This document shows, one piece after another, positions 1,471 through 61,482 of a stretch of DNA of 64,000 nucleotides. Numbering within the stretch: position 1 is the first letter of the stretch; every line of letters starts with the position of its first letter. Where the stretch lies: NCBI RefSeq assembly GCF_004010195.1, contig NC_057719.1:14727849-14791848 (forward strand). Reading direction: 5' to 3'. The DNA comes from Chiloscyllium plagiosum. Taxonomy: Eukaryota. Both the position numbers and the translations under genes were made by a program. A model generated the notes under the pieces. It searched no databases and was not told where the DNA came from. It saw nothing but the letters and a program-made list of their open reading frames with translations.

Positions 1471-1580
1471 AACTGCTAATGTTGAGAGAGGCTTTTCTGT
1501 GCAATTCAGCAAACGTTGCCAAGAGCAGCAGTAAAGGCAGTTTGGGGTTTAACAGCTGGTCTGCTTTCTTAGAGTTGAGT

Positions 1581-2042
1581 ACAAAGTGTGGTTCTGGAAA
1601 AGCACAGCAGGTCAGGTAGCATCCGAGGAGCAGAAGAATCGACGTTTCGGCCAAAAACCCTTCATCAGGAATGAGGCTGTGAGCCGAGGGAGTGGTGAGA
1701 TAAATGGGAGGTGGTTGGGACTGGCGAGAAGGTAGCTGAGAATGCAATAGGTAGATTGAGGAGGGGTAAAGGTGATGGGTCGGAGGGGAGGTGGAGCGGA
1801 TAGGTGGGTAGGGAGATTGACAGGTGGAACAGGTCATGAGGGCGGTGCCGAGTTGGAAGGTTGGAACTGGGGTAAGGTGGAGGGAGGGGAAATGAGGAAA
1901 CTGATGAAATCCACATTAATGCCATGAGGTTGGAGGGTCCCGAGGCAGAATATGAGACGTTCTTCTTCCAGGCGTCTAGTGGTTAGGGAGTGATGATGGA
2001 GGAGGTCCAGGACCTGCGTGTCCTTGGCAGAGTGGGAGTTGA
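1581..2042 (-). mobile_element. 5'-truncated PLE (GIY-YIG end plus pLTR) with 15-bp TSD
   Basis: TSD ttcttagagttgagt at 1566-1580 and 2043-2057; hammerhead core on the minus strand at about 1637-1672. Confidence 0.9.
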
Positions 2043-2084
2043 TTCTTAGAGTTGAGTCTATTGGATACAGTAATGGTTTTTCTA

Positions 2085-3134: not shown

Positions 3135-5572
3135 TAGACCTGGACATTTTACGGCCCACGTGCCATGTCCAGCCCTTTGGTCGTTGCTGTCCCACATGAG
3201 GTCAATCTTAAATTAGAACATAATGAAAAAGTATTTATGCCATGCACGCAATACAACTGTGTTGCTTTTGTTCTGAAAATGATTTTTTAAAATTTACATA
3301 TGGACGCACATGCGCATGTATGTGCATACGTGCGTGCGTAACAGCTAAAAGTGATGCTTGCTGGTTAGCCCTCAAAATGCCAGCTCAAGCAAAAAAAAGC
3401 AAAGTTGATATGGAATGCCGCATTTTTAGCAAGACGTGGACTGCTAGATATTCATTTCCAGAAATCGGAGGTAAAGCCATGTGCTTGGTTTGTGGTGCAC
3501 AGGTCGCTGTGTTCAAGGATTATAATTTGAATCGCCACTACGTGACCAAACACGCCGAGAAGTACAACAATTTGTCTGATCAAGAGCGGGCAAAGGAGTC
3601 GGATGCTTTGCTAGCTAAGCTGCATAACCAGCAAAGACTTTTTACTCAACTTCACATATCCAGAGATGCAGCTGTCAAGACAAGTTATGTCATATCCCAC
3701 AAAATCGCCAGAAACAGTTAACCATTTTCTGATGGAGAGTTTATTAAGGAGTGCTTGTTGGACTCTGCAGAACTAATGTACCTGGAGAAAAAGGAGGCAT
3801 TTGAGAATGTGCCCCTCTCCTGACGCACTGTAACGAGAAGGATTGGGGACATCACGAGAAATCTGGAGCTTCAGCTGCAGCACAGAGCGGTCAACTTTGA
3901 CTTTTTTTCCTTGGCTCTGGATGAGAGCTGCGACATACGTGACACAGGCCAGCTACTCATCTTCGTACATGGGATAACTACGGACTTTAAAATCACGGAG
4001 TAGCTGGCCGCCATGCAGTCAATGAAAGGAAAAACAACTGGTAATGATTTGTTCATGGAGGTAAATGCATGTTTGGACACGTTGGGACTAAAATGGGGCA
4101 AGCTGGCCGGTGTGGCAGCGGATGGTTGTCCAAATCTAATGAGAAAACATGTTGGATTCTTAAAGAGAATGCAGGATAAAGTGACAGAAATTGATCCTGA
4201 ACAGAAATTGGTATTTTTGCATTGTATAATATATCAGGAAGTGTTGTGTAAGTCAGTGTTATGTAAGTCATGTGGTTGATGTTGTAACTAAAATAGTTAA
4301 CTTCATCAGGGCAAGAGCTTTGAATCAAAGGCAGTTTGTTGCACTTTTGGAGGAAAATGAGACTGAACATCGTGACATAGGCTACCACACAGCTGTCAGG
4401 TGGCTCAGCCTGGGCAAAATGCTGAAAAGTGTATGGAACCTGAGAGAAGACATTCAAGATTTCTGTGTGAAGAAAGGGAATGGCATTCCACAGCTTTCAG
4501 ATGCAGACTGGATTGCAGACCTTGGTTTTGCTGTTGATGTGACTGCACTTATGAATGAACTAAATGTGAAACTACAATGCAAGGGCCTTTTTGTGCATGA
4601 AATGTTACAACTCGGTGAAGGCTTTTATGAGAAAGTTGCAACTTCTCTCAAGCAAAATGGAGGACAATATTCTCACCCACTTGCCAACACTGAAGGAAGC
4701 CGCACCTTCAGCTGATCACCTCCACAGGTACTCATCTATGTTAGAAGCACTGCATGGTGAATTTTCGAGACGATTTCAAGACTTTAAAACGGTTGAGAAT
4801 GAAATGCACATGATTTTTTTCCCCATTTACATGCAATGTGGAGAGTGCACCTAGTGATGTTCAGCTTGAACTCACTGACCTGCAGTCTGACACACTTCTG
4901 GCAGAGTACTTTAGGTCAGTCTCACTGCTTGATTTTTACTCTTCCCTCAAAGAGCAAAACTTTCCACACATGAGGAGGCATGTTTAGAAGATTCTAGTCC
5001 TCTTTGGGTCTACCTATATATGCGAACATTCTCAGTGATGACGTTCAACAAATCCAAATACAGATCCTCTATCACTGATGATCACCTCTCAGCTGTCCTT
5101 CGCATTTCCACCTCAGACATTCACCCAGATTTCAGTGCACTTATTCAAGCCCAAAACAGACTGGATTTTTGACACTAAACAAGTAAAATGAACTGAAAAA
5201 CATCAAAAGCACTTATTGCTTTTTGTATAAAGTTGTTTGTTGTTTGTAATGCTGAACAATAATGAAACAACTTTTCATTATTGGTTTGTGAGATTAACAT
5301 GTAAAAAATAAAATGAAATACTGAAATTATTGTTTTTACTGTTTATTTCTTCTATATTTGACCTATTCCACAATTTCATGTCTTTATTGTAACAGAATAT
5401 CCTTATTCTTTTGATTATAAGTTTGAGTGCAAAACTATATAATTTAGTACTTTTTACAATGGGAGAAAATTAATATTGAGCAGAATTATGTTCAACTTAT
5501 TGTTAGTTCGGCCCTCCAACACAACTCAGGTTTCTCATGTGGCCCCTTGGAAGAATTAATTGCCCACCCCTG
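3135..5572 (+). mobile_element. hAT-superfamily (Charlie/Buster-type) DNA transposon, 2438 bp
   Basis: 8-bp TSD gtttagag/ctttagag (3127-3134, 5573-5580); right end ttgcccacccctg (reverse complement caggggtgggcaa); left end tagacctggacat; internal transposase. Confidence 0.92.
3377..5178 (+). pseudogene. Disrupted hAT transposase (GTF2IRD2-like), about 600 codons
   Basis: BED-like CLVC...RHYVTKH, SLALDESCD, DG, HCIIYQE, VRWLS, FGSTYICE; several stops and frameshifts. Confidence 0.92.
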
Positions 5573-7814: not shown

Positions 7815-9050
7815 TTCATTCATAGCGTGCGAGTGTTGTTTCAAGGACAGTATTTGTTACCCAATCTATTTGCCTATAAGCCAGCTTCTTCAGCCACTGC
7901 AGTCCATCTTGTATAGGCATATCCACAGTGCTCTTTGGAAGGGAGTTCCAGATATCTGACTGAGTGACAGTGAAGGAATACTTTAACTCCAAGGCATGAT
8001 GATGTGTGACTTGAAGGTAAACTTGAAGGTATTGGTATTTCCATGGTGTTCTTTTAAATTGGTGAGGTTGTGAATTTGGAAGCTGCTGTTGAAGGAATCT
8101 TAGTGAGTTGTTGCAATGTGAATTGTAGATAACACACACTGCTGCCACGATATGTTAGTGATAAACGGAGTGAATGTTTAAGATGGTGGATGGGGTGTCA
8201 ATCAAGGCGGCAACCTTTTACTCGGATGGTGTCAAATGTCTTGAGAGCTGTTGGAGTTGTACTCATCCAGGCAAGTAAGCAGTATTCTACCACACTCCTG
8301 ACTTGCACCTTACAGATGGTGAAATGGTTTCGGGGACTCAAATGTGAGTTACTCATTGCAGAGCTTCTGTTGCTGATCTTCTTTTACAGACACGGCAATT
8401 ATATTGTTGGCAACAAAAACAAAAACAGAAATCGCTGGAAAAACTCAGCAGATCTGCCAGCATCTGTGGAGAAACGTTAGAGTTAACAGAGTTTCGGATC
8501 CAGTGACCTTTCTGATTTCTCTGCACAGGTGCTGCCAGACCTGTGGAGTATTTCCAGCAATTTCTGTTTTTGATTTTAATCTGATTTCCACATTCCACAG
8601 CTCTTTCATTTTTTTTCTTTAGAATTATATTGCTTTTCTGGGTAATTCTCTCATCAATGTTGACTATCGACATTGGTGGGATATTCAGCAACAGTATCAC
8701 CATTGAGTGTCTAAGGTAGAATGGTTAGTTTCTCTCTTGTTGGAGATATTTATTGCCTGACATCTAAGTGAAATGAATGTTACTTGCCACATTCTCAACT
8801 CAAGCCTGAAAGCTATCGAAGTTTTTCTGTACCCAAACATACACTGATTTGGTATTTGAAGAATCATAAATGGTACGAAACACTGTGCAATCGTCAGAAT
8901 GTTCCCACTTTATGTTGGAGGAAAAATCTTTTATGAAGCAGCTGAAGATGGTTAGGACTTGGACACTATCCTGATGAACCATGTAATGATGTCCTGGGGC
9001 TAAAATGATTGGCCTCTAACAGCCATCATCCTTTTGCGCTAGGCCCCAAG
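7815..9050 (-). mobile_element. Family B LINE RT/3' fragment, degraded and interrupted by a PLE mini-insertion
   Basis: Minus ORF 8800-8982 (HQDSVQVLTIFSCFIKDF...DDCTVF) resembles RT motifs PQGSVLGP and ADD; same tail as 2085-2260. Confidence 0.75.
8407..8622. mobile_element. Palindromic PLE-terminus mini-insertion (second PLE family) with 10-bp TSD
   Basis: Inverted arms acagaaatcgctggaaaaactcagcagatctgccagcatctgtggagaaa versus tttctctgcacaggtgctgccagacctgtggagtatttccagcaatttctgt; TSD aattatattg at 8397-8406 and 8623-8632. Confidence 0.75.
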
Positions 9051-13944: not shown

Positions 13945-16075
13945 ATTCATGGGCATGTATGCATCACCGGCATCATTTACTGGTCATTCCCTAATTGTCC
14001 AGGAGATGATGGTGGTGAGCTGCAGCATCTATGAGCTGTACCCACAATGCTGTTAGGGAGGGTATTCCAGGACATTAACCCAGCGACACTGAAGACAAGG
14101 TGATCCAGCTCCATGTCAAGATGGTGAGTGGCTGGGAGGGTACCTTGCAGAGGATGGTGTTCCCATGTATCTGCTGCCTTGGTCCTTTTAGGTGATAGAG
14201 GTTTCAGGTTGTTGAAGGAGGCTGAGTGAGTCTTGTATATGGTACATACTGCTGCCAGAGTGCATTAGTGCCAGAGAAAATGAATGTTGAAGCTATTAGA
14301 TGGGCTGCCAATCAAGCAGCCAGCTTGGTCCTGGATGTTTTCAAGTTTTTTAAGTGTTGTTGGAACAGGCCCCATCCAGGCAAGTGGGGAGTATTCCAAT
14401 ATCCTCCTGACCTGTGCCTTGTAGATGGTGGACAGGCTTTGGGGAGTCAGAAGATGACACTGCTCTGATCTGCTTTTGTAGCTATATGGCGAGGAGAAAC
14501 TGAGGACTGCAGATGCTGGAGATCAGAGTCAAAGAGTGTGGTGCTGGAAAAGCACAGCCAGTCAGGCAGTATCCGAGGAGCAGGAGAGTCAACATTTCGA
14601 GCATATGCTCTTCATCAGGAATGGAGGGGAGCTGAGACATAAATGGGAAGGGTGGTGCTGGGTGGAAGGTAGCTAAGAATGCAATAGGTAGATAAAGGTG
14701 GGAGGTGATGGCGATAGGTCGGAGTGGATAGGTGGGAAGGGAGATGGAAAGGTAGGGCAGTTCAAGAGGGTGGTGCTGAGTTAGAGGATAGGATTTGGAA
14801 TAAGGTGGAGGGAGGGGACATGAAGAAACTGATGAAATCAACATTGATCCCATGTGGTTGGATGGTCCCAAGACGGAAGATGATGCATTCTTTCTCCAGG
14901 CATTGGGTGGCTAGAGTTTGGCAATGGAGGTGGCCAAGGAATTGCATGTCCTTGGTGGAGTGAGAGGGGAAGTTGAAGTGTTCGGCTACATGGCAGTGGG
15001 GTTGATTGGTACTTGTGTTCTAGAGATGTTCTTTGAAACATTCCACAAGTTGGTGACCTGTCTCTCCAATGTAGAGGACACCACATCAAGAGCAACAGAC
15101 ATAGTAGATGACATGTGTGGATGTACAGGTAAATCTTAGTCGAATGTGGAAGGATCCTTTGGGGCCTTAGATGGAGGTGAGGGGAGAGGTGTGTGTGCAG
15201 GTTTTGCAATTCCTGTGGTGGCAGGGGAAGGTGCTGGGAATGGACAGTGTGTTGGTGGGGGTGCATGGACCTAACAAGGGAGTCACGGAAAGAATGGTCT
15301 CTAAGGAACACAGATAGGCGTGGGGAGGGAAATATATCCCTGGTGGTGGGGTCTGTTTGTAGGTGACAGAAGTGGCAGGGGATGATGTATTGTATCCAGA
15401 GGTTGGTGGAAGGAAAGATGAAGACCGTTATGGGAGGGGATCTGTCCTTGTTGCGATTGAAGGGATAGGGTTCAATGGCAGAGGTGCATGAAGTGGAGGA
15501 GATGTGCTAAAGGACATCATTAACAACATGGGAGGGGAAATTGTGGTCTTTGAAGGAGGATGCCATCTGGTATGTTCTGTGGTGGAATTGGTCCTCCTGG
15601 AAGCAGATGTGGCAGAGGCAGAGGAATTGGGCATAAGGAATAACGTTTTTACAGGAAGCAGGGTGGGAGGACGTACAGTCCAGGTAACTGTGGGAGTCAG
15701 TGGGTTTGAAGTATATGTTCGTGTTGAGTCAGTCTTCCTTCTCCCACTCCACCAAGGACATGCAAGTCCTTGGCCTCCTCCACCGCTAAACTCTAGCCAC
15801 CCAATGCCTGGAGGAAGACTCATCTTCCCCTTTGGGACCCATCAACCACACGAGATCAATGTCAATTTCACCAGTTTCCTCATTTCCTCTGCCCCCACCT
15901 TATCCCAGACCCAACCCCCTGACTCGGCACCGCCCTCTTGAACTGTCCTACCTAGCCATATGGCAAGTCCAGTTCAGTTTCTGGACAATGTTAACCCCCA
16001 AGATGTTGATAATGGGGCATTCAGTGAAGCCAATGCTATTAAATATCAAGGAGATTGTTGGATTCTCTTTTGTTG
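13945..16075 (-). mobile_element. Family B LINE fragment hosting a PLE insertion
   Basis: 13945-14490 and 15953-16075 are collinear with 7815-8750. Confidence 0.7.
14491..15952 (-). mobile_element. PLE (RT C-terminus, GIY-YIG, pLTR and tail) with an inverted 5' segment 15735-15952
   Basis: Minus peptides KECIIFRLGTIQPHGINVDF and FLRDHSFRDSLV; near-perfect TSD tagcYatatggc at 14479-14490 and 15953-15964. Confidence 0.88.
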
Positions 16076-16370
16076 AAATAAAACAAAGAACTGTGGATGC
16101 TGGATACCTGAAATAAAAACAGGTCAGGCAGCATCTGTGGGAAGAAAGCATGGTCAACATTTTGAATCCAGTAACCCTTTTTTAGAACAGTTCTGATGAA
16201 GTGACACCAGACGTAAAATGTTAACCACTAGCCCAGCATTAAATCCATCAATTTTCTTCCTTTCTTCACGTCTGAAGAAGAGGCAGATTTGACGTGAAAT
16301 AAGAATTCTATTTCTCGTTCCTCAGATGCTGCCAGACCTGCTGAATATTTTCAACACTGTCAGCTTTTAT
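16075..16370. mobile_element. Degraded inverted PLE termini (second family) with hammerhead remnants
   Basis: caggtcaggcagcatctgtggg versus ctcagatgctgccagacctg; gttctgatgaag...aaaatgttaac. Confidence 0.6.
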
Positions 16371-24271: not shown

Positions 24272-24450
24272 AAGGCTTATAAGTACAGTGTGACAATAAA
24301 TAAGATTTTGTCATTCAAAAATGTTGACATGGGGTTTTACCATTACAAAGGCTGACATTAATTCTGTCACACAAATATCAGACAATGGAAAATATAGTTA
24401 AAATGGGCATGAAATGAATGGGGTATACAAGACAAGAATGGGGTATACAA

Positions 24451-26176
24451 CCCCGCACTGCCCGGTTCTACCTCCTTCCCAAGATCCACAAGCCTGACCA
24501 CCCTGGCCGACCCATTGTCTCAGCATGCTCCTGCCCCACTGAACTTATCTCTACATACCTCGACACTGTCCTATCCCCCCTAGTCCTGGAACTCCCCACG
24601 TACGTTCGAGACACCACCCACGCCCTCCACCTCCTCCAAGACTTCCGTTTCCCCGGCCCCCAACGCCTCATCTTCACCATGGATATCCAATCCCTCTACA
24701 CCTCCATCCACCATGACCAGGGCCTCCAAGCCCTCCGTTTTTTCCTCTCCAGACGTTCCCAACAGTACCCCTCCACCGACACTCTCATTCGTTTGGCCGA
24801 ACTCGTCCTCANNNNNNNNNNNNNNNNNNNNNNNNNNNNNNNNNNNNNNNNNNNNNNNNNNNNNNNNNNNNNNNNNNNNNNNNNNNNNNNNNNNNNNNNN
24901 NNNNNNNNNNNNNNNNNNNNNNNNNNNNNNNNNNNNNNNNNNNNNNNNNNNNNNNNNNNNNNNNNNNNNNNNNNNNNNNNNNNNNNNNNNNNNNNNNNNN
25001 NNNNNNNNNNNNNNNNNNNNNNNNNNNNNNNNNNNNNNNNNNNNNNNNNNNNNNNNNNNNNNNNNNNNNNNNNNNNNNNNNNNNNNNNNNNNNNNNNNNN
25101 NNNNNNNNNNNNNNNNNNNNNNNNNNNNNNNNNNNNNNNNNNNNNNNNNNNNNNNNNNNNNNNNNNNNNNNNNNNNNNNNNNNNNNNNNNNNNNNNNNNN
25201 NNNNNNNNNNNNNNNNNNNNNNNNNNNNNNNNNNNNNNNNNNNNNNNNNNNNNNNNNNNNNNNNNNNNNNNNNNNNNNNNNNNNNNNNNNNNNNNNNNNN
25301 NNNNNNNNNNNNNNNNNNNNNNNNNNNNNNNNNNNNNNNNNNNNNNNNNNNNNNNNNNNNNNNNNNNNNNNNNNNNNNNNNNNNNNNNNNNNNNNNNNNN
25401 NNNNNNNNNNNNNNNNNNNNNNNNNNNNNNNNNNNNNNNNNNNNNNNNNNNNNNNNNNNNNNNNNNNNNNNNNNNNNNNNNNNNNNNNNNNNNNNNNNNN
25501 NNNNNNNNNNNNNNNNNNNNNNNNNNNNNNNNNNNNNNNNNNNNNNNNNNNNNNNNNNNNNNNNNNNNNNNNNNNNNNNNNNNNNNNNNNNNNNNNNNNN
25601 NNNNNNNNNNNNNNNNNNNNNNNNNNNNNNNNNNNNNNNNNNNNNNNNNNNNNNNNNNNNNNNNNNNNNNCCCCGTGGCCCAACATTTCAACTCCCCCTC
25701 CCACTCTGCCGAGGATATGGAGGTGCTGGGCCTCCTACACCGCCGCTCCCTCACCACCAGACGCATGGGGGAAGAACGCCTCATCTTCCGTCTCGCAACA
25801 CTTCAACCCCAGGGCATCAATGTGGACTTCAACAGCTTCCTCATTTCCCCTTCACCCACCTCATCCTAGTTTCAAACCTCCAGCTCAACACTTCCCCTTG
25901 TCTTGTCCGGAATTGTCCGACCTGCCCAGCTCCTTTTCCACCTATCCACTCCACCCTCTCCTCCCTGACCTATCACCTTCATCTCCTTCCCCACTGACCT
26001 ATTGTACTCTATGCCACTCTCTCCCCACCCCCACCCTCCTCTAGCTTATCTCTCCACGCTTCAGGCTCTCTGCCTTTATTCCTGATGAAGGGCTTTTGCC
26101 CGAAACGTCGATTTTGCTGAAGCTCCTCGGATGCTGCCTGAACTGCTGTGCTCTTCCAGCACCATTGATCCAGAAT
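24451..26176 (+). mobile_element. Young 5'-truncated PLE (RT ... GIY-YIG ... pLTR), spanning an assembly gap
   Basis: Open frame FYLLPKIHKPDHPGRPIVS...FTMDIQSLYTSI (RT); VAQHFN...EERLIFRLATLQPQGINVDF* (GIY-YIG end); CpG-rich; acaagac repeated at 24427-24433 and 26181-26187. Confidence 0.93.
26078..26113 (+). ncRNA. Minimal type I hammerhead ribozyme core in the PLE pLTR
   Basis: CUGAUGA (26082-26088), A, GGGC-UUUU-GCCC, GAAAC, GUC; helix III reduced to the palindrome ACGU; helix I weak. Confidence 0.75.
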
Positions 26177-27586
26177 ATACACAAGACTTCTTCTGTGCTA
26201 TCAATACAGAATTGGATATAAAAAGTTTATAGGTATATTGTCTATTTAATTTAATGTTATGCTTTCAATAGTGGAGAAAAAACTCACCACCTTGAAGGAA
26301 GTTATTTTGCAAAAGAAAATAGGTTGGTTAATCATAGAATTTCATGAGGCAGATATTACTGGAAGCTACCACAATGCCAATTCCACATGATGTTAGCTTG
26401 ATATCAATAACATAATTGCAGCGTCACAACTTAAATGAGATTACCATGAGGTCTATGCACTTTGGGACCCTTTACACAGCTCCCAATATGCTGCATGAAT
26501 GAGAGGTGTTTGTCTCATTCTCATAAGGTAAAGGCAAGCAAAAGATTTCTTCCAATTTTATGATCTAATGGGGAGGGGTGAGTTGGCTCCCTAGTTTTAG
26601 GGCTCTCTGGTTGGTTGCATTAATGGTTTGAGTTCTTCTTAGGACTTTCTCCAAAGAAAATATAGTTAACTAATTTTTATAATAGACATAATGAGCCAAT
26701 CGCAACATTTTCTTAAGTGAGAGAAATAGCAAATTTATTACCTCCTAATGTCAAGGAAAGTATTGAAGATGTAACATCAAGCCTTCAGTCTTTGTGCAGT
26801 CCTGTAGGACTACGCACAGACAAATGTACAAAGGTGATAGTGTCCAGTACAAAAGGAAGACAAAATAATATGGAGTTTAGAGTAGTGTCATAGAGTCACG
26901 GAGTCATACAGCACAGGAACAGACCATTATATTCACTCATCCACACGGAAAAAGTTTCCCAAACTAAACTAGCTCTAATTACCTGTATTTTGCCCGTATC
27001 TGACTAAACCTTTCCTATTCATGTACAAATGTCTTTTAAATGTTGTAACTGTATCTGCATCTACCTCTGGCTATTCATTCCACATACAAACCTCTCTGTG
27101 TGAAGAAGTTACTCCTCAGGTCTCTTTGAAATCTTTCTCCTCTCACCTTGAAAATATGCCCCCTAGTTTTGAACTCCCTCACCCTAGGGAAAAGACCTTT
27201 GCTGTTCACTCTATCAAAGCCCCTCATGATTTTATAAACCTTTATATAGTTACCCCTCAACCTCCTAAGCTCCAGTGAAAGAAGTCCCAGCTTATCTAGC
27301 CTCTCCTGTTAATCCATTACCTCAGTCCTGGTAACATCCTGGTAAGTCTTTTCTGAACCCTCTCCAATTTAGTAATATGGCAAGGCGACTAAATTGGACA
27401 CAGTACTCCAAAATCAGCCTCCTGTGCAACCTCAACATGACATCCCAACTCCTGCATTCAATGTTCTGAGAAATGAAGGCAAGCATGCTAAATGCCTTCT
27501 TAAAGATCTTGTCTACTTGCAATGCAACTTTCAAAGAACAATGTGCCTGAACCCTAAGGTCTCTCTGTTTGACAACACCACCCAAG

Positions 27587-27920
27587 GTCAAAACGTGGGC
27601 ACTGGAAAAAACACAGCAGGTCAGGCAGCTTCCGAGGAACAGGAGAGCCAACATTTCAGGCATAAATCCTTCATCAGGAATTGGTGGTATCGTTGACAGT
27701 GAAGAAGGTTATCTAAGATTACAAAGGGATCTTGATCAATTGGGGCAATGGGCTGAAAAGTGGCAGAAGGAGTTTAATTTGGATAAACTCCCGATGAAAA
27801 GCTTATGCCCAAAACATTGACTCTCCTGCTCCTTAGATGCTGCCTGACCTGCTGGGCTTTTCCTGTGCCACCCTTTTCAACTCTGTGTCCCCAGCAGCTG
27901 CAATCCTCACTTTCTCTAGT
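27587..27920. mobile_element. Palindromic PLE mini-insertion enclosing about 107 bp of inverted CR1 filler
   Basis: Arms at 27587-27680 (minus) and 27788-27880 (plus) plus tail to about 27920; filler 27681-27787 is the reverse complement of 27974-28080. Confidence 0.88.
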
Positions 27921-28267
27921 TGTGCCCAGGGCCCTGCTATTAAATATATATTACCAAAATACAACACTTCACATTTATCCAAATTAAAGTCCTTCTGCCA
28001 CTTCTCAGCCCATTGACCCAATTGATCAATATCCCTTTGCAATCTTAGATAACTTTGTTCACTGTCAATTATGCCAACAATTTTGGTGTCATCTGCAAAC
28101 TTACTAATCACACCTTCCATAATCTCATTCAAATCATTTATATAAATGACAAACAACAGTAAACTTAACACCGATCCCTGTGAAACACCTCTGGTCACAG
28201 GTCGCCAGTCTGATAAACAAACCTTCACTACCACTCGCTGTCTCCTACTGTCAAGTCAATTTTTTTT

Positions 28268-30879: not shown

Positions 30880-31467
30880 TCACTGCTCACAATGTGGTCT
30901 CCTCTGCAGTTGGGCAGACTGGCTGACCGCTTCACAGAACATCTATGTTCTCTCTGCAAAATAGACCCTGAGCTTCCAGTTGCCTGGCAGTTCAACACAC
31001 CACCCTGTTCCCTGGCCAACATCTCTGTCTCAGGCTTGCTCCAATGCTCTGCTCAGCTCAGGCTGGAGAACAGCACCTTGTTTTATGCTTGGGGACTCTA
31101 CAGCCTCCTCACATCAATATCGAGTTCAACAATTTTACAGCTTGAGCACTATTCGCCATGGTTTCCCACACCCCCACCCAGCAGGCCTTGTTATCACATG
31201 GTCTGCTATTACACACAACCCATTGTTAGCCACTAATAGTCACCATTAACAACTATTCATTCTCCCAGACTGACTTTTACCCACTCCTTTGACTCTCCAA
31301 CTGTTTTTTTTCTCACTTTGGGCTCTATCTCCCCCTATCGTTTACTCCTCACCCCCTTCCCCCACTCTGCCTTCTGCATAAGAACCAACTTTAGCCTAGC
31401 TACCATCAGTTCTGAAGGAGGGTCACTGGACCTGAAACATTAACTCTGATTTCTCTCCACAGATGCT
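30880..31467 (+). mobile_element. PLE GIY-YIG end and pLTR (second family)
   Basis: GRLADRFTEHL...PVAWQFN...RLE peptide; hammerhead remnant agttCTGAAGGagggtcactggacctGAAACATTaact. Confidence 0.8.
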
Positions 31468-31705
31468 AGTAGAAAGTGAGGCCTGCAGATGCTGAAGATC
31501 AGAGTCGAAGAGTGCGGTACTAGAAAAGCGCAGCAAGTCAAGCAGCATCTGAGGGGCAGGAGAGTCGACGTGTGGAGCATGAGGAATGTTCCTGATGTTC
31601 CTCTTCATCATGTTCCTGATGAAGTGTTTATGCCCAAAACATCGACTCGCCTGCTCCTCAGATGCTGCCTGACCGGCTGTGCTTTTCCAGTGCCACATGT
31701 TTTGA
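31468..31705. mobile_element. Palindromic PLE mini-insertion with 15-bp TSD
   Basis: TSD ctctccacagatgct at 31453-31467 and 31706-31720; inverted arms; tail on the left. Confidence 0.88.
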
Positions 31706-32789
31706 CTCTCCACAGATGCTGTGCAGTTTGTTCGGGTTAGTTTTAAGCTCTGAATATGTTTTTATTAAAAAATCTAACCTTGCCTTAAGTTTTTAAGTTT
31801 GTAAGTTTAAGTATGCAAAAAAAAAGAAAAAAAAAATTCTTAAAATCCAGCATCCACCTTGAACTCTGGCAACCAAAAACAGTCTCTTCCTCAGATCCTC
31901 TATCAGTTGGCTCTCAACTCTTTGGCTCTAAGTAAAGGCACTTTGTTCCCTCCTATTCCTAGGTTCAGCCTTACAAAAATAATGATCCAGGAACCTGCTC
32001 CCCATTATTATTTAAGTTACTACAAATGAACCCTCAACAAAAGAAAATCTTTTCTGGAGCCTTCGACAAATACGTGGGCAATCCAGTCTCTAGAGTAGAG
32101 GGATGACTGTTTTAACCTGAAATCACATTGGCTAGTAACATTCTTGGACTGTCAGCAATAGGAAATACTGCATTTACAACGGTTGTTGCTGTCTCTGGAC
32201 TTTTTCTTTCATGACAGACAGTGGGAGATCCTTTTTCCAACCTGATTCAGTTCTGCAGTCAAACATCCATCAACACTGCCTTTTGGCAAAGAGCTCCTTA
32301 AATATGGAAGCTACTTGTCTGTTCTCTGTCTACTGAAGTTTTGTTTTGTTTCTCTAGGTTTGATAGGTGTCAGTGAGGTTCCATCACATTGGAGATAAGA
32401 TTCATTTTCACAGCTCTCAGGATGAGTTTTATTGGTTTCACTGTCTTGGAATAAAATATCAACGCGTCTACAATTTGTGTATTCCACTCACTTCATGACA
32501 CCTCACTGACTTGTAGAGTAAGTGATGCTTGTAATCCCTCTAAGTTAATGTTTTGCTCTCCTTATTAAGCTTTTTCAGATCATGAATGTCCCAGGTATTA
32601 AAATAGAAAATGGAATGCAATGTCAAAATCCATATTCTGTCCAATTGTGACAAGTTCCTTCGGTTCATTGAAAGATACCTGTAGAGTATAGAACACTTTG
32701 GTACCCTGTTTTACTGAACAGCTATAACTGTTTTTTTCCCAATGGCAAGGAGAATAGACAGGCATAACAGCAACAGATTTGTATTTTTA

Positions 32790-33112: not shown

Positions 33113-33413
33113 TAGTACATATAACACACATATATGAAGTAAATCAACATCGTGTCAATCATGATAAGTAAATTCTACTAATCATAGACAGATGTGCTCT
33201 TACTTTTTTGTCTTTCTGCATAAAACATACAGCAGCTGTTCACAAGATGACAGGGAGGAACATACAGTTGATGCATCACTAACACTGCTCATTTGCAAAA
33301 CCTCAAAGGAATGATATTCCCAGATGACAGATTCCATTGAAATAAACAAACATGTGAAACTTGTTGCCTTCAAACCTTTTCAAACTTCCATGAGTCAGTC
33401 ATACTTGGTGTAA

Positions 33414-33583
33414 GTCGACAGTGTGGAGCTGGAAAAGCACAGCAGGTCAGAAACTCATTCCTGATGAAGGGCTCTTGCCCAAAACGTTGATTTTCTTGCT
33501 CCTCAGATGCAACCTGAACTGCTGTGCTTTTCCAGCACCACATTCTCGACTCTGATCTCCAGCATTTGCTGTCTTCACTTTCT
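33414..33583. mobile_element. Palindromic PLE mini-insertion (170 bp) with 15-bp TSD
   Basis: TSD tcatacttggtgtaa at 33399-33413 and 33584-33598; short inverted arm, then hammerhead core, arm and 33-nt tail. Confidence 0.92.
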
Positions 33584-34574
33584 TCATACTTGGTGTAACT
33601 CCAGTCATCACAGCACTTTGACAATAAGGGCTTTGGGTTAGGTCTACTCAATATGGAGACCAGGTCAAACACTGCCATTGCCCTCCACAGTTACTACTCG
33701 GATGTGAGACACCTGGGAATGATGTAATTACCCTAGCTATAAACTAAACATAGATCTCAAATATTGTAAACGTAGAAATACAGATATTTAGGTGTGATTA
33801 GAAGGCAGCAATCTAATCAAGCAATTTGGCTGACATCACAAAATTTTATGTTATTAGTTGATATATAACTGCATTCTGTATCCGGATGTGATTTTCTGTT
33901 CCATCTATAATTTTATAGGATAAAGCTGCGGTGATCCTAAAAGCCAGAGTATAATTCCTAAAGTAAGTTTTGTTAAAATGTCACTGGACTTGTAATGTTA
34001 AAATTGCATTCTTTCCAACGACGCTGCCAGACCTGCTGAGTTTCACCAGCAAATTCTGTTTCTGTTTCAGATCTCCAACATCTAGAGTTCTTTGTTTTTC
34101 CTAAAGTAGGCTTAGTGATCTGGTTGGAAAACGTCCCAATCTGCTGGCCTTTCATTCATAAGAACAAAGGAATGTAAGACATGGGAGCAGAAGGAAACCA
34201 TTCAACACTCCGAGCCAGCACTATCTTTCAGTAAGATCAAAGCTGAGCTTCTATATTGATTAAACTTTACTGTAAATCAGCAATGTACCAATTTTGGCAG
34301 GTTTCATGGACGGTTACTCTCCATGAGGCCTGGTGAAATTTCTCATTATTTCCTGAAATTCGTCTCACTTAGCTATGCACCGCATGATTATGGCACCCCA
34401 CTTGTAATATCTTTCCTCTTGCCATATTCATTACTGCCAGGATCGCAAAAGATTCCTGGTGCTGGTGCCCTGTTTATGAACAGTTGTTCACCAAGTCAAG
34501 TGCAGAAAGTTCAGAGCTGCTTTGCATATTCCTTCATCCAAAGCATTGCACTGGACTTGGCAGATCGAGGAATA

Positions 34575-35806: not shown

Positions 35807-36530
35807 GGATGTAGGTTTGCTTGCTGAGCTGGAAGGTTCATTTCCAGATGTTTTGTCACCCTACTAGGTAACATCTTCAGTGGGCCTCAGGCGAAGCACT
35901 GCTGATAATTCCTGCTTTCTATTTATATGTTTGGGTTTCTTTGGGTTGGTGATGTCATTTCCTGTGGTGATGTCATTTCCTGTGGTGAAGTCACTTCTTG
36001 TTCCTTTCTCAGGAGATGGTAGATGGTGTCTAACTCGATGTGTTTGTTGATAGAGTTCCTGTTGAAATGCCATGTTTCTAGGAATTCTTGTGCATGTCTT
36101 TGTTTTGTTTGTCCTAGGATGGATGTGTTGTTCCAGTAGAAGTGGTGTCCTTCATCATCTGTATGTAAGGATACTAGTGAGAGAGGGTCATGTCTTTTTG
36201 TGGTTAGTTAGTGTTCATGTATCCTGGTTTAGAACAGAGTGGTGCTGGAAAAGCACAGCAGGTCAGGCAGCATCCAAAGAGTAGGAAAATCGACGTTTCG
36301 GGCAAAAGCCCTTCATCAGGAATAGGCTTCCTGCCTCTATTCCTGTTGAAGGGCTTTTGCCCGAAATGTCGATTTTCCTGCTCCTCGGATGCTGCCTGAC
36401 CTGCTGTGCTTTTCCAGCACCACTCTGATCTAAACTCTGGTTTCCAGTATCTGCAGTCCTCACTTCTGCCTTCATGTATCTTGGTGGCTAGTTTTCTGCT
36501 TGTTTGTCCAATGTAGCGCTTGTTACAGTC
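35807..36530 (-). mobile_element. Poseidon-type PLE 3' end (GIY-YIG plus terminus with hammerhead remnant), split by a mini-insertion
   Basis: Minus strand reads like AQEFLETWHF..NSINKHIELD; core CTGAAGA-t-GTTACC-tagtag-GGTGAC-AAAAC-ATC at 35845-35882. Confidence 0.8.
36229..36470. mobile_element. Palindromic PLE mini-insertion (242 bp) with two opposed hammerhead cores and 15-bp TSD
   Basis: About 97-bp inverted arms, about 10-bp spacer, 35-nt tail; TSD ttcatgtatcYtggt at 36214-36228 and 36471-36485. Confidence 0.93.
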
Positions 36531-37224
36531 AATCTTTTTTTGGTAAAAGACTGCTTATAATATGAATTTTAAAGTGTGAATGACAGTGTTGACTGTATAA
36601 AACAGATTACAATATAATCCAGGAAGCCTGCACGTTTTAACTGAAAACCACAAATGCTGGAAATCACAGTGTGTCAGACAGCATCCATGGAGAGAGAGCG
36701 AGCAAACACCGAGAGAGAGCGAGCAAACATTTTGAGTCTTGGTGACTCTTCATCAGTGCTTGTACCTAAGCCTCTAATTTATATTTTGTTCACTCATGGG
36801 ATTTGGACATCCCTGGCTGAGCCAGCATTTTATTGCCTGCTCCTAGTTGTTCTTGAGAAGATGGTGTTGAGTTCCCTCTTGAACCAGTGCAGCCCATCCT
36901 TTGGTGGTGGTTATTTTTCGCATTGCTGCACATCGGTCATCAGTGTAATATTCTTTTTCAAGAGTCATGTTTGGGAATTGCTGTTATGTTATGTCATTAT
37001 CATTATATTAAATGGCAGGCAATTAGCTTGAGAATATACATGAATAGTCTAATTTCAGGGCACTGGCCTAAATATTACCGATAAAACATTTAAGATCATC
37101 TTAAACTAAATGTACGTAAATACAAAAGCAATGAAATATGGAATAATTAAAGGGTCCGGAAAGCACAATCCATTGGGATTCAAATTTTAATTCAGTCCAG
37201 TTGTGACCTCTGTAAGAGAAAAGA

Positions 37225-38964: not shown

Positions 38965-39365
38965 AATCACATGGTATCAACATCAACTTCGCCAGTTTCC
39001 AAATCTCCACTCCCTGCATCTCATCCCAGATCCAACCCTCCAACTCCATAATGTCCTCTTGACCTGTCCCACATGTTCATCTTCCTTCCCACCTATCCGC
39101 TCCACCCTCCCCACCAACCTATCATAATTATCCCCCACTTGCTTCCACCTATCACCTTCCCAGCTATCTTCTTCCCAGCCCTAACCCCATCTCCCGATTT
39201 ATCTCTCAGACCCCATGCCACCCCATCAGCGCACATTCCTGATGAAGGGCGTATGACCAAAATATTGACTCTCCTGCTCCTCGGAGTCTGTCTGACCTGC
39301 TGTGCTTTTCCAGTGCCACACGTTTTGACTCTGACTCCAGCATCTGTAGTCCTCACTTCCTCCAA
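38965..39365 (+). mobile_element. PLE 3' fragment with hammerhead remnant and tail
   Basis: Homologous to 25800-26176; cctgatgaagggcgtatgaccaaaat. Confidence 0.85.
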
Positions 39366-41182
39366 ACTTACTAATAGGATTAATATTCGAAGTAAGGTCA
39401 GGAACCAGACAATCGGATGAATTCTATGTCCTCGTGCTGTTCATGCGCTATTATTTTGGAATGCATATATTCTTTTGTGCAAGAGACAAACTCAAGGCTA
39501 GATGTGGCCTGTCTTGCAGCAATGGTAAAGGCAGATGATGACCAAATTGGAGTTTGCTACTGCCTTGTTGAAAAGACCACTTGGTACATCAGAGGGATGG
39601 GAGGATAGATCATTGCGAATGAGGGTAGCTGGGTCAAACTGAGGTTATATGTAAGTTCTGAAGCAGATTGTCCCAGAATCTGATCATTTCCAATGTCGAA
39701 AGGGGAACCTTTCTTTAACCCAGCGGTGAATCTGAAGCTGTGTTTTGAGGTGCAATAGATTGTTTCAGTTTACCGAAATCAGTTTTAAAAATTGTGTTCC
39801 CAGATCCGTGGCCCCTAAACAAGCCCCTCAAGGGAGTTAATAGGTTGTTAATTTGGCAGCCAGCTGGTTTCCCTTCATCCCACCCCTGCCAGCACTTTGT
39901 AAAGAAGACAATCTCCAGGACCATGATTTGAAGTCATACCAATACATGAGTCCTAACCCCATGTGGATTTACAAATCTGGCCATTCTTAACCTTTGAATT
40001 GGTCGCAGTCCCACCACTGTGTCAACAGGTTTTTGGTACTAAATCCTATTGTAGTCGTGAGCTTATCATCTTGGTCTTCAGGGAGCAAGGAGAATCATGC
40101 AGGTCCCTTTAATTCCCAAGCTACCGTTATACTCTGGACAGCTCAGGGACAATTACTGCCAAATGGCTCATTATGGAGCCAAATTAACATCTTGTTGGCA
40201 TAGCCAAGGATTCCAGTGATGGACCCTTCCTGCTTAACTTAATTAGGGACAATTTGATTGATGAATCTAATGAGAAAACCCCATTCAACTCTTCTACTCA
40301 ACGGGGCATCATGCTTACTCCAGCACCAGTGAATTACAACCATTATATTGAAGAGTTGACAATATATCAGTTCAATTCCTCCTCTATGTTGCAATATGGA
40401 TTTCACTCCTGTCACAATTTCACATGTTGAAGGAGGCAATAAATCATATTTCAATAGGCAATTTGTGTTTTACATTAAAACAGCATCATTCATTCACATT
40501 GCTTGATTGTGCTGGTCTCTGTCTGCCCAATATTCCTCTGTAGAATATTCCAATGCTATCTGACCAGCCTTCCATATCATCTTCCACAAACTGAGGCCAT
40601 CTGAAAATGAACAGCTTATCTTTTCGCTCATCACCCAGTTCCAGTTGATTCCCAGCTATGCAATGCCTTCATTTCAAAATCCTTATCTTTGTTCCACCTT
40701 TTTCATGACTTTGTTCCTAACAATCTCTGTAACCTCTGCCAAACCTAGAACCTTCAGAGATAACTAAAATCCTTCAAATGTGGCCTCATGCCTTCCAAAT
40801 TGTAATGACACATTCGAAGATACTTGAGTCATTGGTGTGTAGGAGGCATACCCCTGTGTTGTAGCCCATTTGTTCTGATGTCAATAACCAGGCTGTTGTA
40901 TGCCATTAGATCTTTGCTGCTGCAAGGACATGCTCATCAAAATTGATCTTGGTTAAAAGTTGCCTTCACCTCTGATTTCTCCTCCAGTAAGATCTTTCCT
41001 AAAACCTACTATGTTAGCTTTTGGTTCCCTATGTATTTATATATTTTAAGATGATTCAATATATAAGTGTATTTGCTAATAGTTTCATGTAATGCCTTGG
41101 GATGTTTTACGATATCGAAGGTGTTCCACAATTGCAAGTGGTCGTTGTTGTGTAAGAGAAAACACAAACGTAAATGTTGATT

Positions 41183-41646
41183 GGGTGGCACGGTGGCTCA
41201 ATGGTTAGCACTGCTACCTCACAGCACCAGCGGCCCAGGTTTGATTCTACCCTCGGGCGATTGTCTGTTTGGAGCTTCCACATTCTCCCCATGTCTAGTG
41301 GGTTTCCTGTGGGGCCTCTGGCTTCCTTCCACAATACAAAGATGTGCAGGTTAAGTGAATTGGCCATGCTAAATTGCCCATAGTGTAGGTTACGTACATT
41401 AGTCAGCAGAAATGTAAAGTAGGGGAAAGTGAGGACTGGAGATCAGCCCTGATTCTCCTGCTCCTCAGATGTTGCCTGACCTGCTGTGCTTTTCCAGAAC
41501 TACTCTCTCGGAAATGTAAAGTCATAGGGTAAGTGAATGACTCTGGATGGGATACTCTTCAGAGTCTTGGTGGGATACTCTTCAGAGGTTTGGTGTGGAT
41601 TTGTTGGGCCAAATGGCCTGTTTCCACACTGTAGGAATTCTGTGAT
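41183..41646 (+). mobile_element. HE1-type V-SINE containing a 90-bp PLE mini-insertion (41421-41510)
   Basis: HE1 head and V-domain; insertion flanked by 12-bp TSD gaaatgtaaagt (41409-41420, 41511-41522). Confidence 0.88.
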
Positions 41647-58861: not shown

Positions 58862-61482
58862 ATAGACAATAGACAATAGGTGCAGGAGTAGGCCATTCTG
58901 CCCTTCGAGCCAGCACCACCATTCATTATAATCATGGCTGATCATCCTCAATCAGTATCCTTTTCCTGCCTTATCCCCATAACCCTTGATTCCACTATCC
59001 TTAAGAGCTCTATCCAACTCCACAGCCTTCTGGGGCAGAGCATTCCACACACTCACCACTCTCTGGGTGAAGAAGTATTTCCTCATCTCTGTCCTAAATG
59101 GTCTACCCCTTATTTTTAATCTGTGTCCTCTGGTTCGGGACTTACCCATCAGCGGAAACATGCTTCTTGCCTCCAGAGTGTCCAATCCTTTAATAATCTT
59201 ATACGTCTCAATCAGATCCCCTCTCAGCCTTCTAAACTCAAGGGTATAATAGCCCAGTCGCTCCAGTCTTTCAATGTAAGACAGTTCTGCCATTCCGGGA
59301 ATTGACCTCGTGAACCTACGCTGCACTCCATCAATAGCCAGAATGTCTTTCCTCAAATTTGGAGACCAAAACTGCACACAATATTTCAGGTGCGGTCTCA
59401 CCAGGGCCCTGTACAGCTGCAGAAGAACCTCTTTGCTTCTATACTCAATTNNNNNNNNNNNNNNNNNNNNNNNNNNNNNNNNNNNNNNNNNNNNNNNNNN
59501 NNNNNNNNNNNNNNNNNNNNNNNNNNNNNNNNNNNNNNNNNNNNNNNNNNNNNNNNNNNNNNNNNNNNNNNNNNNNNNNNNNNNNNNNNNNNNNNNNNNN
59601 NNNNNNNNNNNNNNNNNNNNNNNNNNNNNNNNNNNNNNNNNNNNNNNNNNNNNNNNNNNNNNNNNNNNNNNNNNNNNNNNNNNNNNNNNNNNNNNNNNNN
59701 NNNNNNNNNNNNNNNNNNNNNNNNNNNNNNNNNNNNNNNNNNNNNNNNNNNNNNNNNNNNNNNNNNNNNNNNNNNNNNNNNNNNNNNNNNNNNNNNNNNN
59801 NNNNNNNNNNNNNNNNNNNNNNNNNNNNNNNNNNNNNNNNNNNNNNNNNNNNNNNNNNNNNNNNNNNNNNNNNNNNNNNNNNNNNNNNNNNNNNNNNNNN
59901 NNNNNNNNNNNNNNNNNNNNNNNNNNNNNNNNNNNNNNNNNNNNNNNNNNNNNNNNNNNNNNNNNNNNNNNNNNNNNNNNNNNNNNNNNNNNNNNNNNNN
60001 NNNNNNNNNNNNNNNNNNNNNNNNNNNNNNNNNNNNNNNNNNNNNNNNNNNNNNNNNNNNNNNNNNNNNNNNNNNNNNNNNNNNNNNNNNNNNNNNNNNN
60101 NNNNNNNNNNNNNNNNNNNNNNNNNNNNNNNNNNNNNNNNNNNNNNNNNNNNNNNNNNNNNNNNNNNNNNNNNNNNNNNNNNNNNNNNNNNNNNNNNNNN
60201 NNNNNNNNNNNNNNNNNNNNNNNNNNNNNNNNNNNNNNNNNNNNNNNNNNNNNNNNNNNNNNNNNNNNNNNNNNNNNNNNNNNNNNNNNNNNNNNNNNNN
60301 NNNNNNNNNNNNNNNNNNNNNNNNNNNNNNNNNNNNNNNNNNNNNNNNNNNNNNNNNNNNNNNNNNNNNNNNNNNNNNNNNNNNNNNNNNNNNNNNNNNN
60401 NNNNNNNNNNNNNNNNNNNNNNNNNNNNNNNNNNNNNNNTTTTTTTCCTTTCACATACCTAAAAAAGCTTTTACTATCCTCCTTTATATTTTTGGCCAGT
60501 CTACCTTCGTACCTCATTTTTTCTCTGGGTATTTCCTCCTTAGTTATCCTCTGTTGTTCTTTAAAAGCTTCCCAGTCCTCCGTTTTCCCACTTATCTTTG
60601 CTATGTTATATTTTTTCTCTTTTGACTTTATATGTTTCTTAACTTCCCTCATCATCCATGGCCACCCCTGCCTCCTCTCAGGATCTTTCTTCCTTTTTGG
60701 AATGAACTGATCCTGCATCTTCTGCATTATACTCAAAAATACCTGTCATTGTTGTTCCACTGTCATCCCTGCTAGGGTATTGCAACACTGAACTTTGGCC
60801 AGCTCCTCCCTCATAGCTCCATAGTTCCCTTTATTCAACTGAAATATTGTCACTTCCGATTTTACCCTCTCCCTTTCAAATTGCAGATTAAAGCTTATTG
60901 TATTATGGTTACTACCTCCTAATAGCTCCTTCACTTCAAGGTCCCTGATTAAATCCGGTTCGTTGCACAACACCCCAGATCCAGAATTGCTTTCTCCCTG
61001 GTAGGTTCCAGCACCAGCTGTTCTAAGAATCCATCTCTGAGGCACTCCACAAACACCCTTTCTTGGGGTCCAGTACCATCCTGATTCTCCCAGTCTACCT
61101 GCATGTTGAAATCCCCCAAAACAACTGTAGTAATATCTTTGCAACAGGCCAATTTCAGCTCCTTATTCAACGTACACCCTACATCCAGACTACTGTTTGG
61201 GGGCCTGTAAATAACTCCCATTAGGGTCTTTCTATCCTTAGAATTTCTCAGCTCTATTCATACTGACTCTACATCCCCTGATTCTAGGTCCTTCTGCACA
61301 AGGGAATGAATATTATTCCTTACCAACAGGGCGACACCATCCCCTCTGCCCATCAGTCTGTCCTTACGATAGCACGTATAGCCTTGAATATTCATTTCCC
61401 AGGCCTTGTCCACTTGAAGCCACATCTCCGTTATCCCCACAACATCATAACTGCCAATTTCCAAATGAGCCTCAAGCTCATC
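58862..61482 (-). mobile_element. CR1 (second family) ORF2, fairly young, spanning an assembly gap
   Basis: YDVVGITEMWL, GVIYRPPNS, LGDFN, LYRALVRPHLKYCVQFWSP; tail (tattgtc)2. Confidence 0.93.

Follow-up and report, generated by a model that had tools for sequence, protein, structure and literature searches.

The 64-kb window, the whole stretch of Chiloscyllium plagiosum DNA that was analysed, contains ten loci that match one short insert by BLAST. Five are two-armed, all of them head-to-head, and are called here A (36229-36470), B (33414-33583), C (31468-31705), D (27587-27920), and E (41421-41510). The other five are solo copies, named by position (847, 1585, 14498, 26063, and 39235). Read on the ORF strand, the PLE end that these loci share consists of a pyrimidine-rich 3' UTR, the motif ATTCC, a minimal hammerhead, about 65 nt of further sequence, a boundary, and a tail. 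The original prediction held all five two-armed loci to be palindromic PLE termini. A to D are indeed head-to-head inverted copies of this end, but E is no palindrome: only the tail (26 nt, with a 9-nt internal gap) forms its left arm, sequence from upstream of the tail forms its right arm, the arms do not overlap, and the locus folds no better than shuffled sequence (z 0.19; 110 of 200 shuffles as good). Arm lengths across the inserts range from 37 to 146 nt, without any ORF. The tail is present on exactly one side in all five, and its length of 33-36 nt in A to D agrees with the one-sided tail of 33-38 nt expected beforehand. Coordinates are collected in Table 1.

Table 1. Positions of the two-armed inserts, their parts, and the copies used for comparison
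Feature	Position	Strand	Remarks
Control solo tail-less copy 1581-2042 with 15-bp TSD	1566..2057	-	ends at tail boundary
Control and parent fragment: tailed copy 14494-15952	14479..15967	-	RT-thumb, Cys-rich linker, and GIY-YIG remnants; inverted segment 15741-15952
Parent fragment of A's subfamily	24434..26177	+	RT remnant, N gap, GIY-YIG end, 3' UTR, intact core, tail-less end
D, whole unit	27587..27924	+	
D, tail-less antisense arm	27587..27682		
D, filler	27679..27787	+	reverse complement of right flank 27974-28082 (LINE RT fragment)
D, sense arm	27788..27881		
D, tail	27882..27916		then 8-9 extra nt
C, whole unit including TSDs	31453..31720	-	
C, left TSD	31453..31467		
C, tail	31468..31503		
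C, tail-bearing arm	to 31588		11-nt deletion
C, centre	31589..31612		short repeated pieces of both arm ends (stutter)
C, tail-less arm	31613..31705	+	
C, right TSD	31706..31720		
B, whole unit including TSDs	33399..33598	+	
B, left TSD	33399..33413		
B, tail-less antisense arm	33414..33450		37 nt
B, sense arm	33454..33550		
B, tail	33551..33583		
B, right TSD	33584..33598		
Host of A	36000..36540	-	remnant GIY-YIG ORF from another PLE family, into which A inserted
A, left TSD copy	36214..36228		14/15 match to 36471-36485; in-frame five-codon duplication in host ORF
A, tail-less arm	36229..36326	-	just upstream of ATTCC to tail boundary
A, intact minimal hammerhead core	36292..36319	-	CTGATGA, 4-bp stem II, GAAA-CG-TC; motif scan and stem check
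A, tail-bearing arm	36325..36435	+	begins 15 nt upstream of ATTCC at AG common to both arms; mutated core 36343-36370
A, 35-nt tail	36436..36470	+	
A, right TSD copy	36471..36485		
E, whole unit including TSDs	41409..41522	+	
E, left TSD	41409..41420		
E, antisense tail-only arm	41421..41446		followed by 4 nt
E, sense arm	41451..41510		
E, right TSD	41511..41522		

Other elements in the window have a comparable look. A sixth head-to-head insert, built from a second PLE-end family, lies at 8397-8634 with a tail-less antisense arm on the left, a tailed sense arm on the right, and an 8397/8623 direct repeat (11/12). At 16080-16360, a tailed antisense and a tail-less sense arm of PLE-like ends stand head-to-head about 60 nt apart; a TSD at their outer ends was not identified. 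A short solo end of the second PLE-end family occupies 33955-34113, with a direct repeat 33955/34098 (11 bp perfect, 14/16). The ORF pieces at 3227-4715 are an apparent transposase remnant, which we take to resemble the hAT type (SPIN/GTF2IRD2-like).

The inserts are flanked by target-site duplications (TSDs), whose predicted coordinates in A, B, C, and E were all confirmed: 36214/36471 in A (14/15), 33399/33584 in B (15/15), 31453/31706 in C (15/15), and 41409/41511 in E (12/12). As a chance control, a repeat of at least 12 nt with at most one mismatch was found at 14 of 20,000 random intervals. A TSD of about 15 bp had been proposed as a trait of the whole family. Four of the five inserts are enclosed by 12-15 bp, but D has no 15-bp TSD and shows just an imperfect 6-7 bp duplication (27581-27586/27925-27930) plus 8-9 extra bases. 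Among the solo copies, 1585 (1581-2042) has a perfect 15-bp TSD (15/15), 14498 (14494-15952) has one matching at 13/15, the best direct repeat of 26063 is 9/10, and a convincing TSD was not found for 847 and 39235 (two of the five solos).

The host of A makes its duplication legible at the protein level. The TSD corresponds to five host codons duplicated in frame, T(K/R)IHE; when the flanks are translated separately, TKIHE closes the right one and TRIHE opens the left, a duplication of exactly five codons. Pfam gave no hits for the 69-aa GIY-YIG piece of this host. The host flanks are high-copy in the reads, and many pieces end at 36228, as expected of empty paralogous sites. Likewise, the target is present once in the in-window paralogues of the SINE-like host of E and the LINE host of D. 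C sits in the end of another PLE family (31410-31467), and that host sequence does not resume past the right TSD.

The parent of the inserts can be recognized from longer copies. RT/GIY-YIG remnants at 14494-15740 and 24434-26177 terminate in the same end. The RT piece of the latter has 97% identity to a Chiloscyllium punctatum RT protein, and longer homologues of this piece carry RVT_1 and GIY-YIG domains. Pfam gave no hits on four short ORFs of the window, and the parent element was classified via the domains of its homologues. As judged from sequence, the inserts are truncated ends of a PLE predicted to encode RT with a C-terminal GIY-YIG domain. A Cys-rich CxxxxCxxC linker precedes the endonuclease in the 14.5-15.7 kb copy and in homologue P0010; the available text of one survey gives such a linker between RT and EN for Neptune and Nematis (PMC8557442). 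The element may be Neptune-type; the linker is also found in Nematis. Three subfamilies can be told apart among the arms (A with 847 and 26063; B with E and 1585; C and D with 14498 and 39235), and all five solos extend hundreds of bases further upstream than the arms of the inserts.

Within the copy 14494-15952, the inverted segment 15741-15952 copies the element's own 14750-14966 with 34 differences in 212 positions. Its outer end lies in the 3' UTR and not at the tail boundary, which indicates that other start points or fold-back also occur. N gaps at 24812-25670 (in a PLE) and 59451-60439 (in a LINE) both fall inside retroelements that look young, so the assembly collapsed or was gapped at such repeats.

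The outer ends of the inserts are not placed at random. The tail's far end forms one of them and its near boundary forms the second; solos use either. In A to D the tail-less arm ends between GAC or AAC and TCTG, so the common stop point claimed for these four better-preserved inserts holds, given an overlap of 0-4 nt with the TSD; the corresponding end of E is about 2 nt short of this boundary. The boundary is not specific to palindromes, as solos 1585 and 26063 (two of five) end there and 847, 14498, and 39235 (three of five) carry the tail. Tail boundaries are therefore non-random across copies, with A to D and two solos stopping at one point. Among the contigs aligned to A, the largest loose-end class listed is at 36423 (1,976 in X1 and 1,616 in X9); it falls about 10 nt short of the boundary, where A differs from the common variant. 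Because solos stop at the boundary and this class lies near it, the boundary is a family-wide end. Moreover, tail-less solo 1585 with its perfect duplication indicates that it can be a primary end without a hairpin. In Anolis Poseidon, two RT start sites bound the tail, and the protein nicks and extends both strands of the target (PMC11167929).

Each arm of A carries a hammerhead core. The scan for a strict core with paired stem II found four in the window (A-left, 847, 14498, and 26063). The expectation of one intact and one mutated core in A was borne out by motif scan and stem check, the minus-strand core being intact and the plus-strand core having two changes. A minimal predicted hammerhead is thus present in the PLE end. 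Rfam returned no hammerhead family hit and five sub-threshold hits, three of which are hairpin matches on A or B; these two inserts score as miRNA-like hairpins, below the Rfam thresholds. A SNORA53 match at 40785-40932 also falls below threshold (34.2 bits against a gathering score of 38) and is probably due to chance.

Of the ten arms, one (the sense arm of E) has its first base directly after the predicted hammerhead cut site. The top joint in the reads, 36323-36371, was considered as a further start at the cut site and rejected, being at least partly alignment loss over a CpG-rich patch, which leaves E alone. In four of the five solos, a CAG follows a long pyrimidine tract 4-13 nt upstream of ATTCC (26060-26078, 1672-1682, 14622-14636, and 39224-39235). 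The right arm of A begins exactly at the AG of this CAG in its subfamily, a possible splice acceptor at the hammerhead edge.

The centres of the inserts bear on how the arms were joined. A lacks a spacer: relative to ATTCC, its left arm stops two bases upstream and its right arm begins 15 bases upstream, with an AG common to both (2-nt overlap). This centre is a natural 4-bp hairpin that also occurs in solo 26063. The arms of A are identical at 87 of 93 positions (six differences; 4% non-CpG difference) and are each other's nearest match. At the centre of B there are about 3 extra nt, and at that of E 4 nt. The centre of C is a stutter of both arm ends that opens with a 5-bp hairpin. In D, the filler is identical at 98 of 109 positions to the reversed flank, which lies 50-160 bp away, and the next copy in the window matches at 78%; short letters are common to both sides at each junction. 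We favour copying of this filler from the adjacent flank; a similar source elsewhere in the genome may exist, yet the matching segment is the adjacent one. Differing spacers had been taken as a sign of independent formation. The centres of all five do differ, but they are not true spacers, given their absence in A, the few bases in B, the stutter in C, and the reversed flank in D.

The arms of C differ at three linked non-CpG sites. The tailed arm has T, T, C, like solo 14498, and the tail-less arm has C, G, T, like D-left and solo 39235; the stutter piece 31601-31610 carries the 14498-type stem II base. The C-left column at the stem II site is misaligned by the deletion and was left out of the variant count. 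The arms of D differ at two of four variant sites, and D-right is a mosaic. Total arm-to-arm differences (22/84 in C and 23/93 in D) arise partly from misalignment and exceed the TSD difference (0/15 in C); divergence of arms against TSDs was rejected as a clock because it is too noisy.

Inner arm ends cluster as well. Counted from the A of ATTCC, the ends of the ten arms lie at -15, -3, -2, -1, 0, 0, +1, +32, +57, and +96. Six of them stop within 5 nt of the hammerhead 5' edge, with a chance of 3e-5 under a uniform model in which the interval was chosen after the data had been seen and the offsets were entered by hand. TCATTCC and its variants presumably fit the initiator consensus. Upstream of CATTC, the consensus of loose ends before 36347 (506 contigs in X1 and 448 in X9) is A/T-rich with low agreement, in contrast to the C-rich UTR, and weakly supports an RNA 5' end near ATTCC. 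The pile of joints at 36321-36323 is partly forced by the stop of A's left arm and so does not confirm the clustering independently. In Drosophila Penelope, as described in the available parts of two papers, an intron ends at the hammerhead 5' edge and transcription starts about 120 nt earlier (PMC4209133; PMC2377424). Run-off at the 5' end of the RNA is possibly what stopped the arms near the hammerhead edge, and it is the reading we prefer.

Reads and contigs bear on whether A is one unit of a family. No centre was matched across its junction by another locus of the window in six junction queries. Records aligned to 36060-36630 number at least 150,405 in X1, 105,502 in X9, 3,901 in X21, and 19,746 in X16. 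Among the best 15 of 973 joints in reads aligned to A, 12 link the left and right arms at varied places, two are strand switches, and one runs from flank to flank; the other 958 may include further kinds. The best joint occurs in 16 contigs, and some of those listed recur in 6-16 contigs and in two organisms. In X1, depth is 54,017 at the junction (36327) as opposed to 3.83 million in the arm (36315), or about 1.4%. Across 162 nt, the longest listed piece over the junction of A differs by 21 mismatches and 8 gaps. Full-length copies could be missed among the contigs, because these break at repeats and palindromes and the locus of A itself is not listed in one piece. Head-to-head pairs are common and varied, and no copies of A as a unit were seen among the contigs listed. 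A 30-nt family pattern had no matches in viral or in metagenome contigs, and no tandem array of insert units was found in 27-42 kb, where the cores lie on opposite strands.

We consider it reasonably probable that the two-armed inserts arose from two cDNAs primed from both staggered nicks of a target and then end-joined. The GIY-YIG endonuclease would make the nicks, which would account for the 12-15 bp duplication observed in four of the five inserts. Reverse transcription would begin at two internal start sites, as the Poseidon reactions in vitro suggest; the outer end at the tail's far end would come from one, and that at the near boundary from the second. Microhomology and brief templated synthesis would then link the free cDNA ends. 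As both ends are antisense, they cannot pair with each other directly, and a bridge by snap-back or template-switch synthesis would be needed, made by a polymerase-theta-like enzyme or by RT itself. Polymerase theta carries out templated extension both in cis and in trans, as the available text reports (PMC4912351). For the filler of D, the 3' end of the lower-strand cDNA may have folded onto its own flank, copied about 106 nt, and paired with the other cDNA. The products would be dead-on-arrival, non-replicating scars. A hybrid of two primers and snap-back synthesis that makes the overlap would account for all five inserts.

C, D, and E speak for two primers. Self-copying should yield identical arms, so the mixed variants of C point to two templates, and the reversed-flank filler of D also favours two end-joined cDNAs. 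We favour reading E as adjacent, non-overlapping parts of one RNA end, as two primers on one RNA would give. E could also have been a longer palindrome whose middle was later deleted, as a 9-nt internal gap is already there. Further points weigh against two primers: the case for different templates consists of three sites in C, two in D, and five comparison copies; the same variant polarity in C and D is also expected from a common two-pLTR or palindromic source; and the in-vitro data come from Poseidon, whereas the family here looks Neptune-type.

The next contender, fold-back alone, is unlikely in our judgement. Here one cDNA from one nick would snap back at the template end, copy itself to the tail boundary, and join the other side. 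It fits A as well as two primers do, the centre being a short natural hairpin with a 2-nt slip between arms that are nearest to each other. The 5-bp hairpin that opens the centre of C and the same subfamily of both arms in four of four palindromes also agree with it, and central palindromes have been read as self-priming in the available part of one review (PMC3846280). However, fold-back gives no reason for a stop at the tail boundary, a primary end in solos, or for the three linked variant differences in C, and the sense arm of E has no template in its antisense arm. Fold-back as originally proposed thus suits the centre of A and fits C and E poorly.

More doubtful still is an origin in two events, with a second PLE end inserted in or beside the first, or with later gene conversion or deletion reshaping the arms. 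PLE ends are dense in the window, A and C themselves lie within other PLE sequences, and cleavage in the element's own pLTR is noted in the available text of the Poseidon study (PMC11167929); the excess of arm over TSD divergence in C and D points the same way. Against this, the two arms of A, B, C, and E lie within one TSD each and no inner duplication was seen, the tail is one-sided in every insert, and all two-armed loci (five of ten) are head-to-head.

The least credible alternative, a self-amplifying, non-autonomous palindromic family of MITE- or retrozyme-like kind mobilised in trans by PLE proteins, is very improbable: the similar sizes, fixed outer ends, and very high copy number (the X1 contigs above), the same variant on the tailed side of C and D, the joints that recur across contigs and two organisms, and the ability of PLEs to mobilise sequences in trans (available text of PMC3846280) would suit it, but every centre is different (that of D matching its own flank), the arms fall into three subfamilies, the joints are heterogeneous, junction depth is a small fraction of arm depth, tandem same-strand units are lacking in 27-42 kb, and the hammerheads lie on opposite strands when minimal ones, which cut poorly, need two same-sense copies as described in the available part of PMC4209133. 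With opposite-strand hammerheads, only a single copy is in sense in any transcript, and a long duplex is predicted to bury it. Of the two options first put forward, independent products of PLE reverse transcription are therefore supported, in the published layout of PLE insertions, and the inserts are likely to have been made one at a time rather than as a MITE or retrozyme family.

A strong hairpin had been expected at every insert. The predicted fold supports this in A to D (z against shuffles -27.9, -8.7, -11.0, and -4.6, respectively) but not in E. If A is transcribed, one of its cores is antisense, and the predicted fold buries the second in a -189 kcal/mol duplex. One poly(A) single-cell RNA run (X21, about 2% read) yielded 3,901 family reads on both strands, 44 of them at 99% identity or more. 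In this 2% of a library unsuited to small circles, no reads fell on the unique flank 36540-36630 and no piles of starts or ends were seen. The share of A>G and T>C changes was considered as a sign of RNA editing and set aside as uninformative (132 of 430 change places in X21 as opposed to 64 of 253 in X1); the reads are mixed paralogues, so these counts say nothing on editing. If transcribed in introns or UTRs, A to D would be predicted to form long double-stranded RNA.

Complex insertions of EN+ PLEs, in the available texts, consist of an inverted 5'-truncated copy with a one-sided tail of 30-40 bp and a TSD (Arkhipova et al. 2013, PMC3846280; Craig et al. 2021, PMC8557442; Schostak et al. 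2008, PMC2377424). The inserts resemble them in the head-to-head inverted pLTR, one-ended tail, outer TSD, and microhomology or palindrome at the junction. Unlike the insertions in these accounts, both arms here are as short as noted above and lack any ORF, and the TSDs measure 12-15 bp as opposed to 8-10 bp in the rotifer examples given. Going beyond what those texts present, the arm ends cluster at the hammerhead 5' edge and some centres hold templated filler. The hammerhead survey describes dual minimal hammerheads on opposite strands, 100-700 bp apart, and ascribes them to truncated PLEs (Cervera and De la Pena 2014, PMC4209133). These share the minimal type I core, the extra base before stem II, and the palindromic 2-nt helix III; the pairs are from Schistosoma, are presented there without TSD or junction analysis, and differ in spacing from the cores here, which are 25-120 bp apart.

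The mechanism has its closest parallel in Poseidon PAc in vitro, with two RT starts bounding the tail, both strands nicked and extended, and a predicted dimer (Frangieh et al. 2024, PMC11167929); it belongs to another clade, and inverted insertions are not modelled in the available portion of that account. Non-LTR retrozymes, as far as the accessible texts describe them, are built as direct tandem repeats whose hammerheads, all on one strand, release circles (PMC7229834; bioRxiv 10.64898/2026.07.22.740005). The inserts are similarly small, non-coding, hammerhead-bearing, related to PLE pLTRs, and flanked by long TSDs, but they are inverted pairs and not direct tandems. In the window, the form that twin priming would give, non-overlapping segments of one RNA, is found only in E (one of five). 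Ostertag and Kazazian reportedly described L1 twin priming in 2001 as priming from both nicks that leaves an inverted segment inside one TSD with junction microhomology. The arms overlap in A to D, so two templates, displacement, or snap-back are needed there. In MITEs, terminal inverted repeats reach flush to each end, and many copies have a single uniform internal structure; unlike them, the inserts have a tail and not an inverted repeat at one end, five different centres, and at least 973 joints in reads.

The layout is therefore one already published for PLEs and does not define a new family; what is new is its bearing on mechanism, through the arm variants of C, the non-overlap of E, and the flank-derived filler of D. 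The origin of inverted PLE structures and of the one-sided tail is called an open question in the available parts of two studies (PMC8557442; PMC11167929). No paper on shark PLE palindromes or on a two-primer account of them was found in the literature outside subscription papers, repeat databases, and supplements. For annotation, such loci should be recorded as truncated PLE insertions rather than as members of a new MITE, miRNA, or ribozyme family.

Because both primed ends and the junction are kept within 250 bp, a genome-wide tabulation could separate two-primer from fold-back origins. A tentative extension of the two-primer reading, possible though short of probable, is that a dimeric PLE protein primes both nicks on two RNAs from the tail boundaries, the arms being run-off cDNAs of a 'strong-stop'-like kind. 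If so, thousands of such scars in sharks would map the transcription start, nick spacing, and template use of PLEs.
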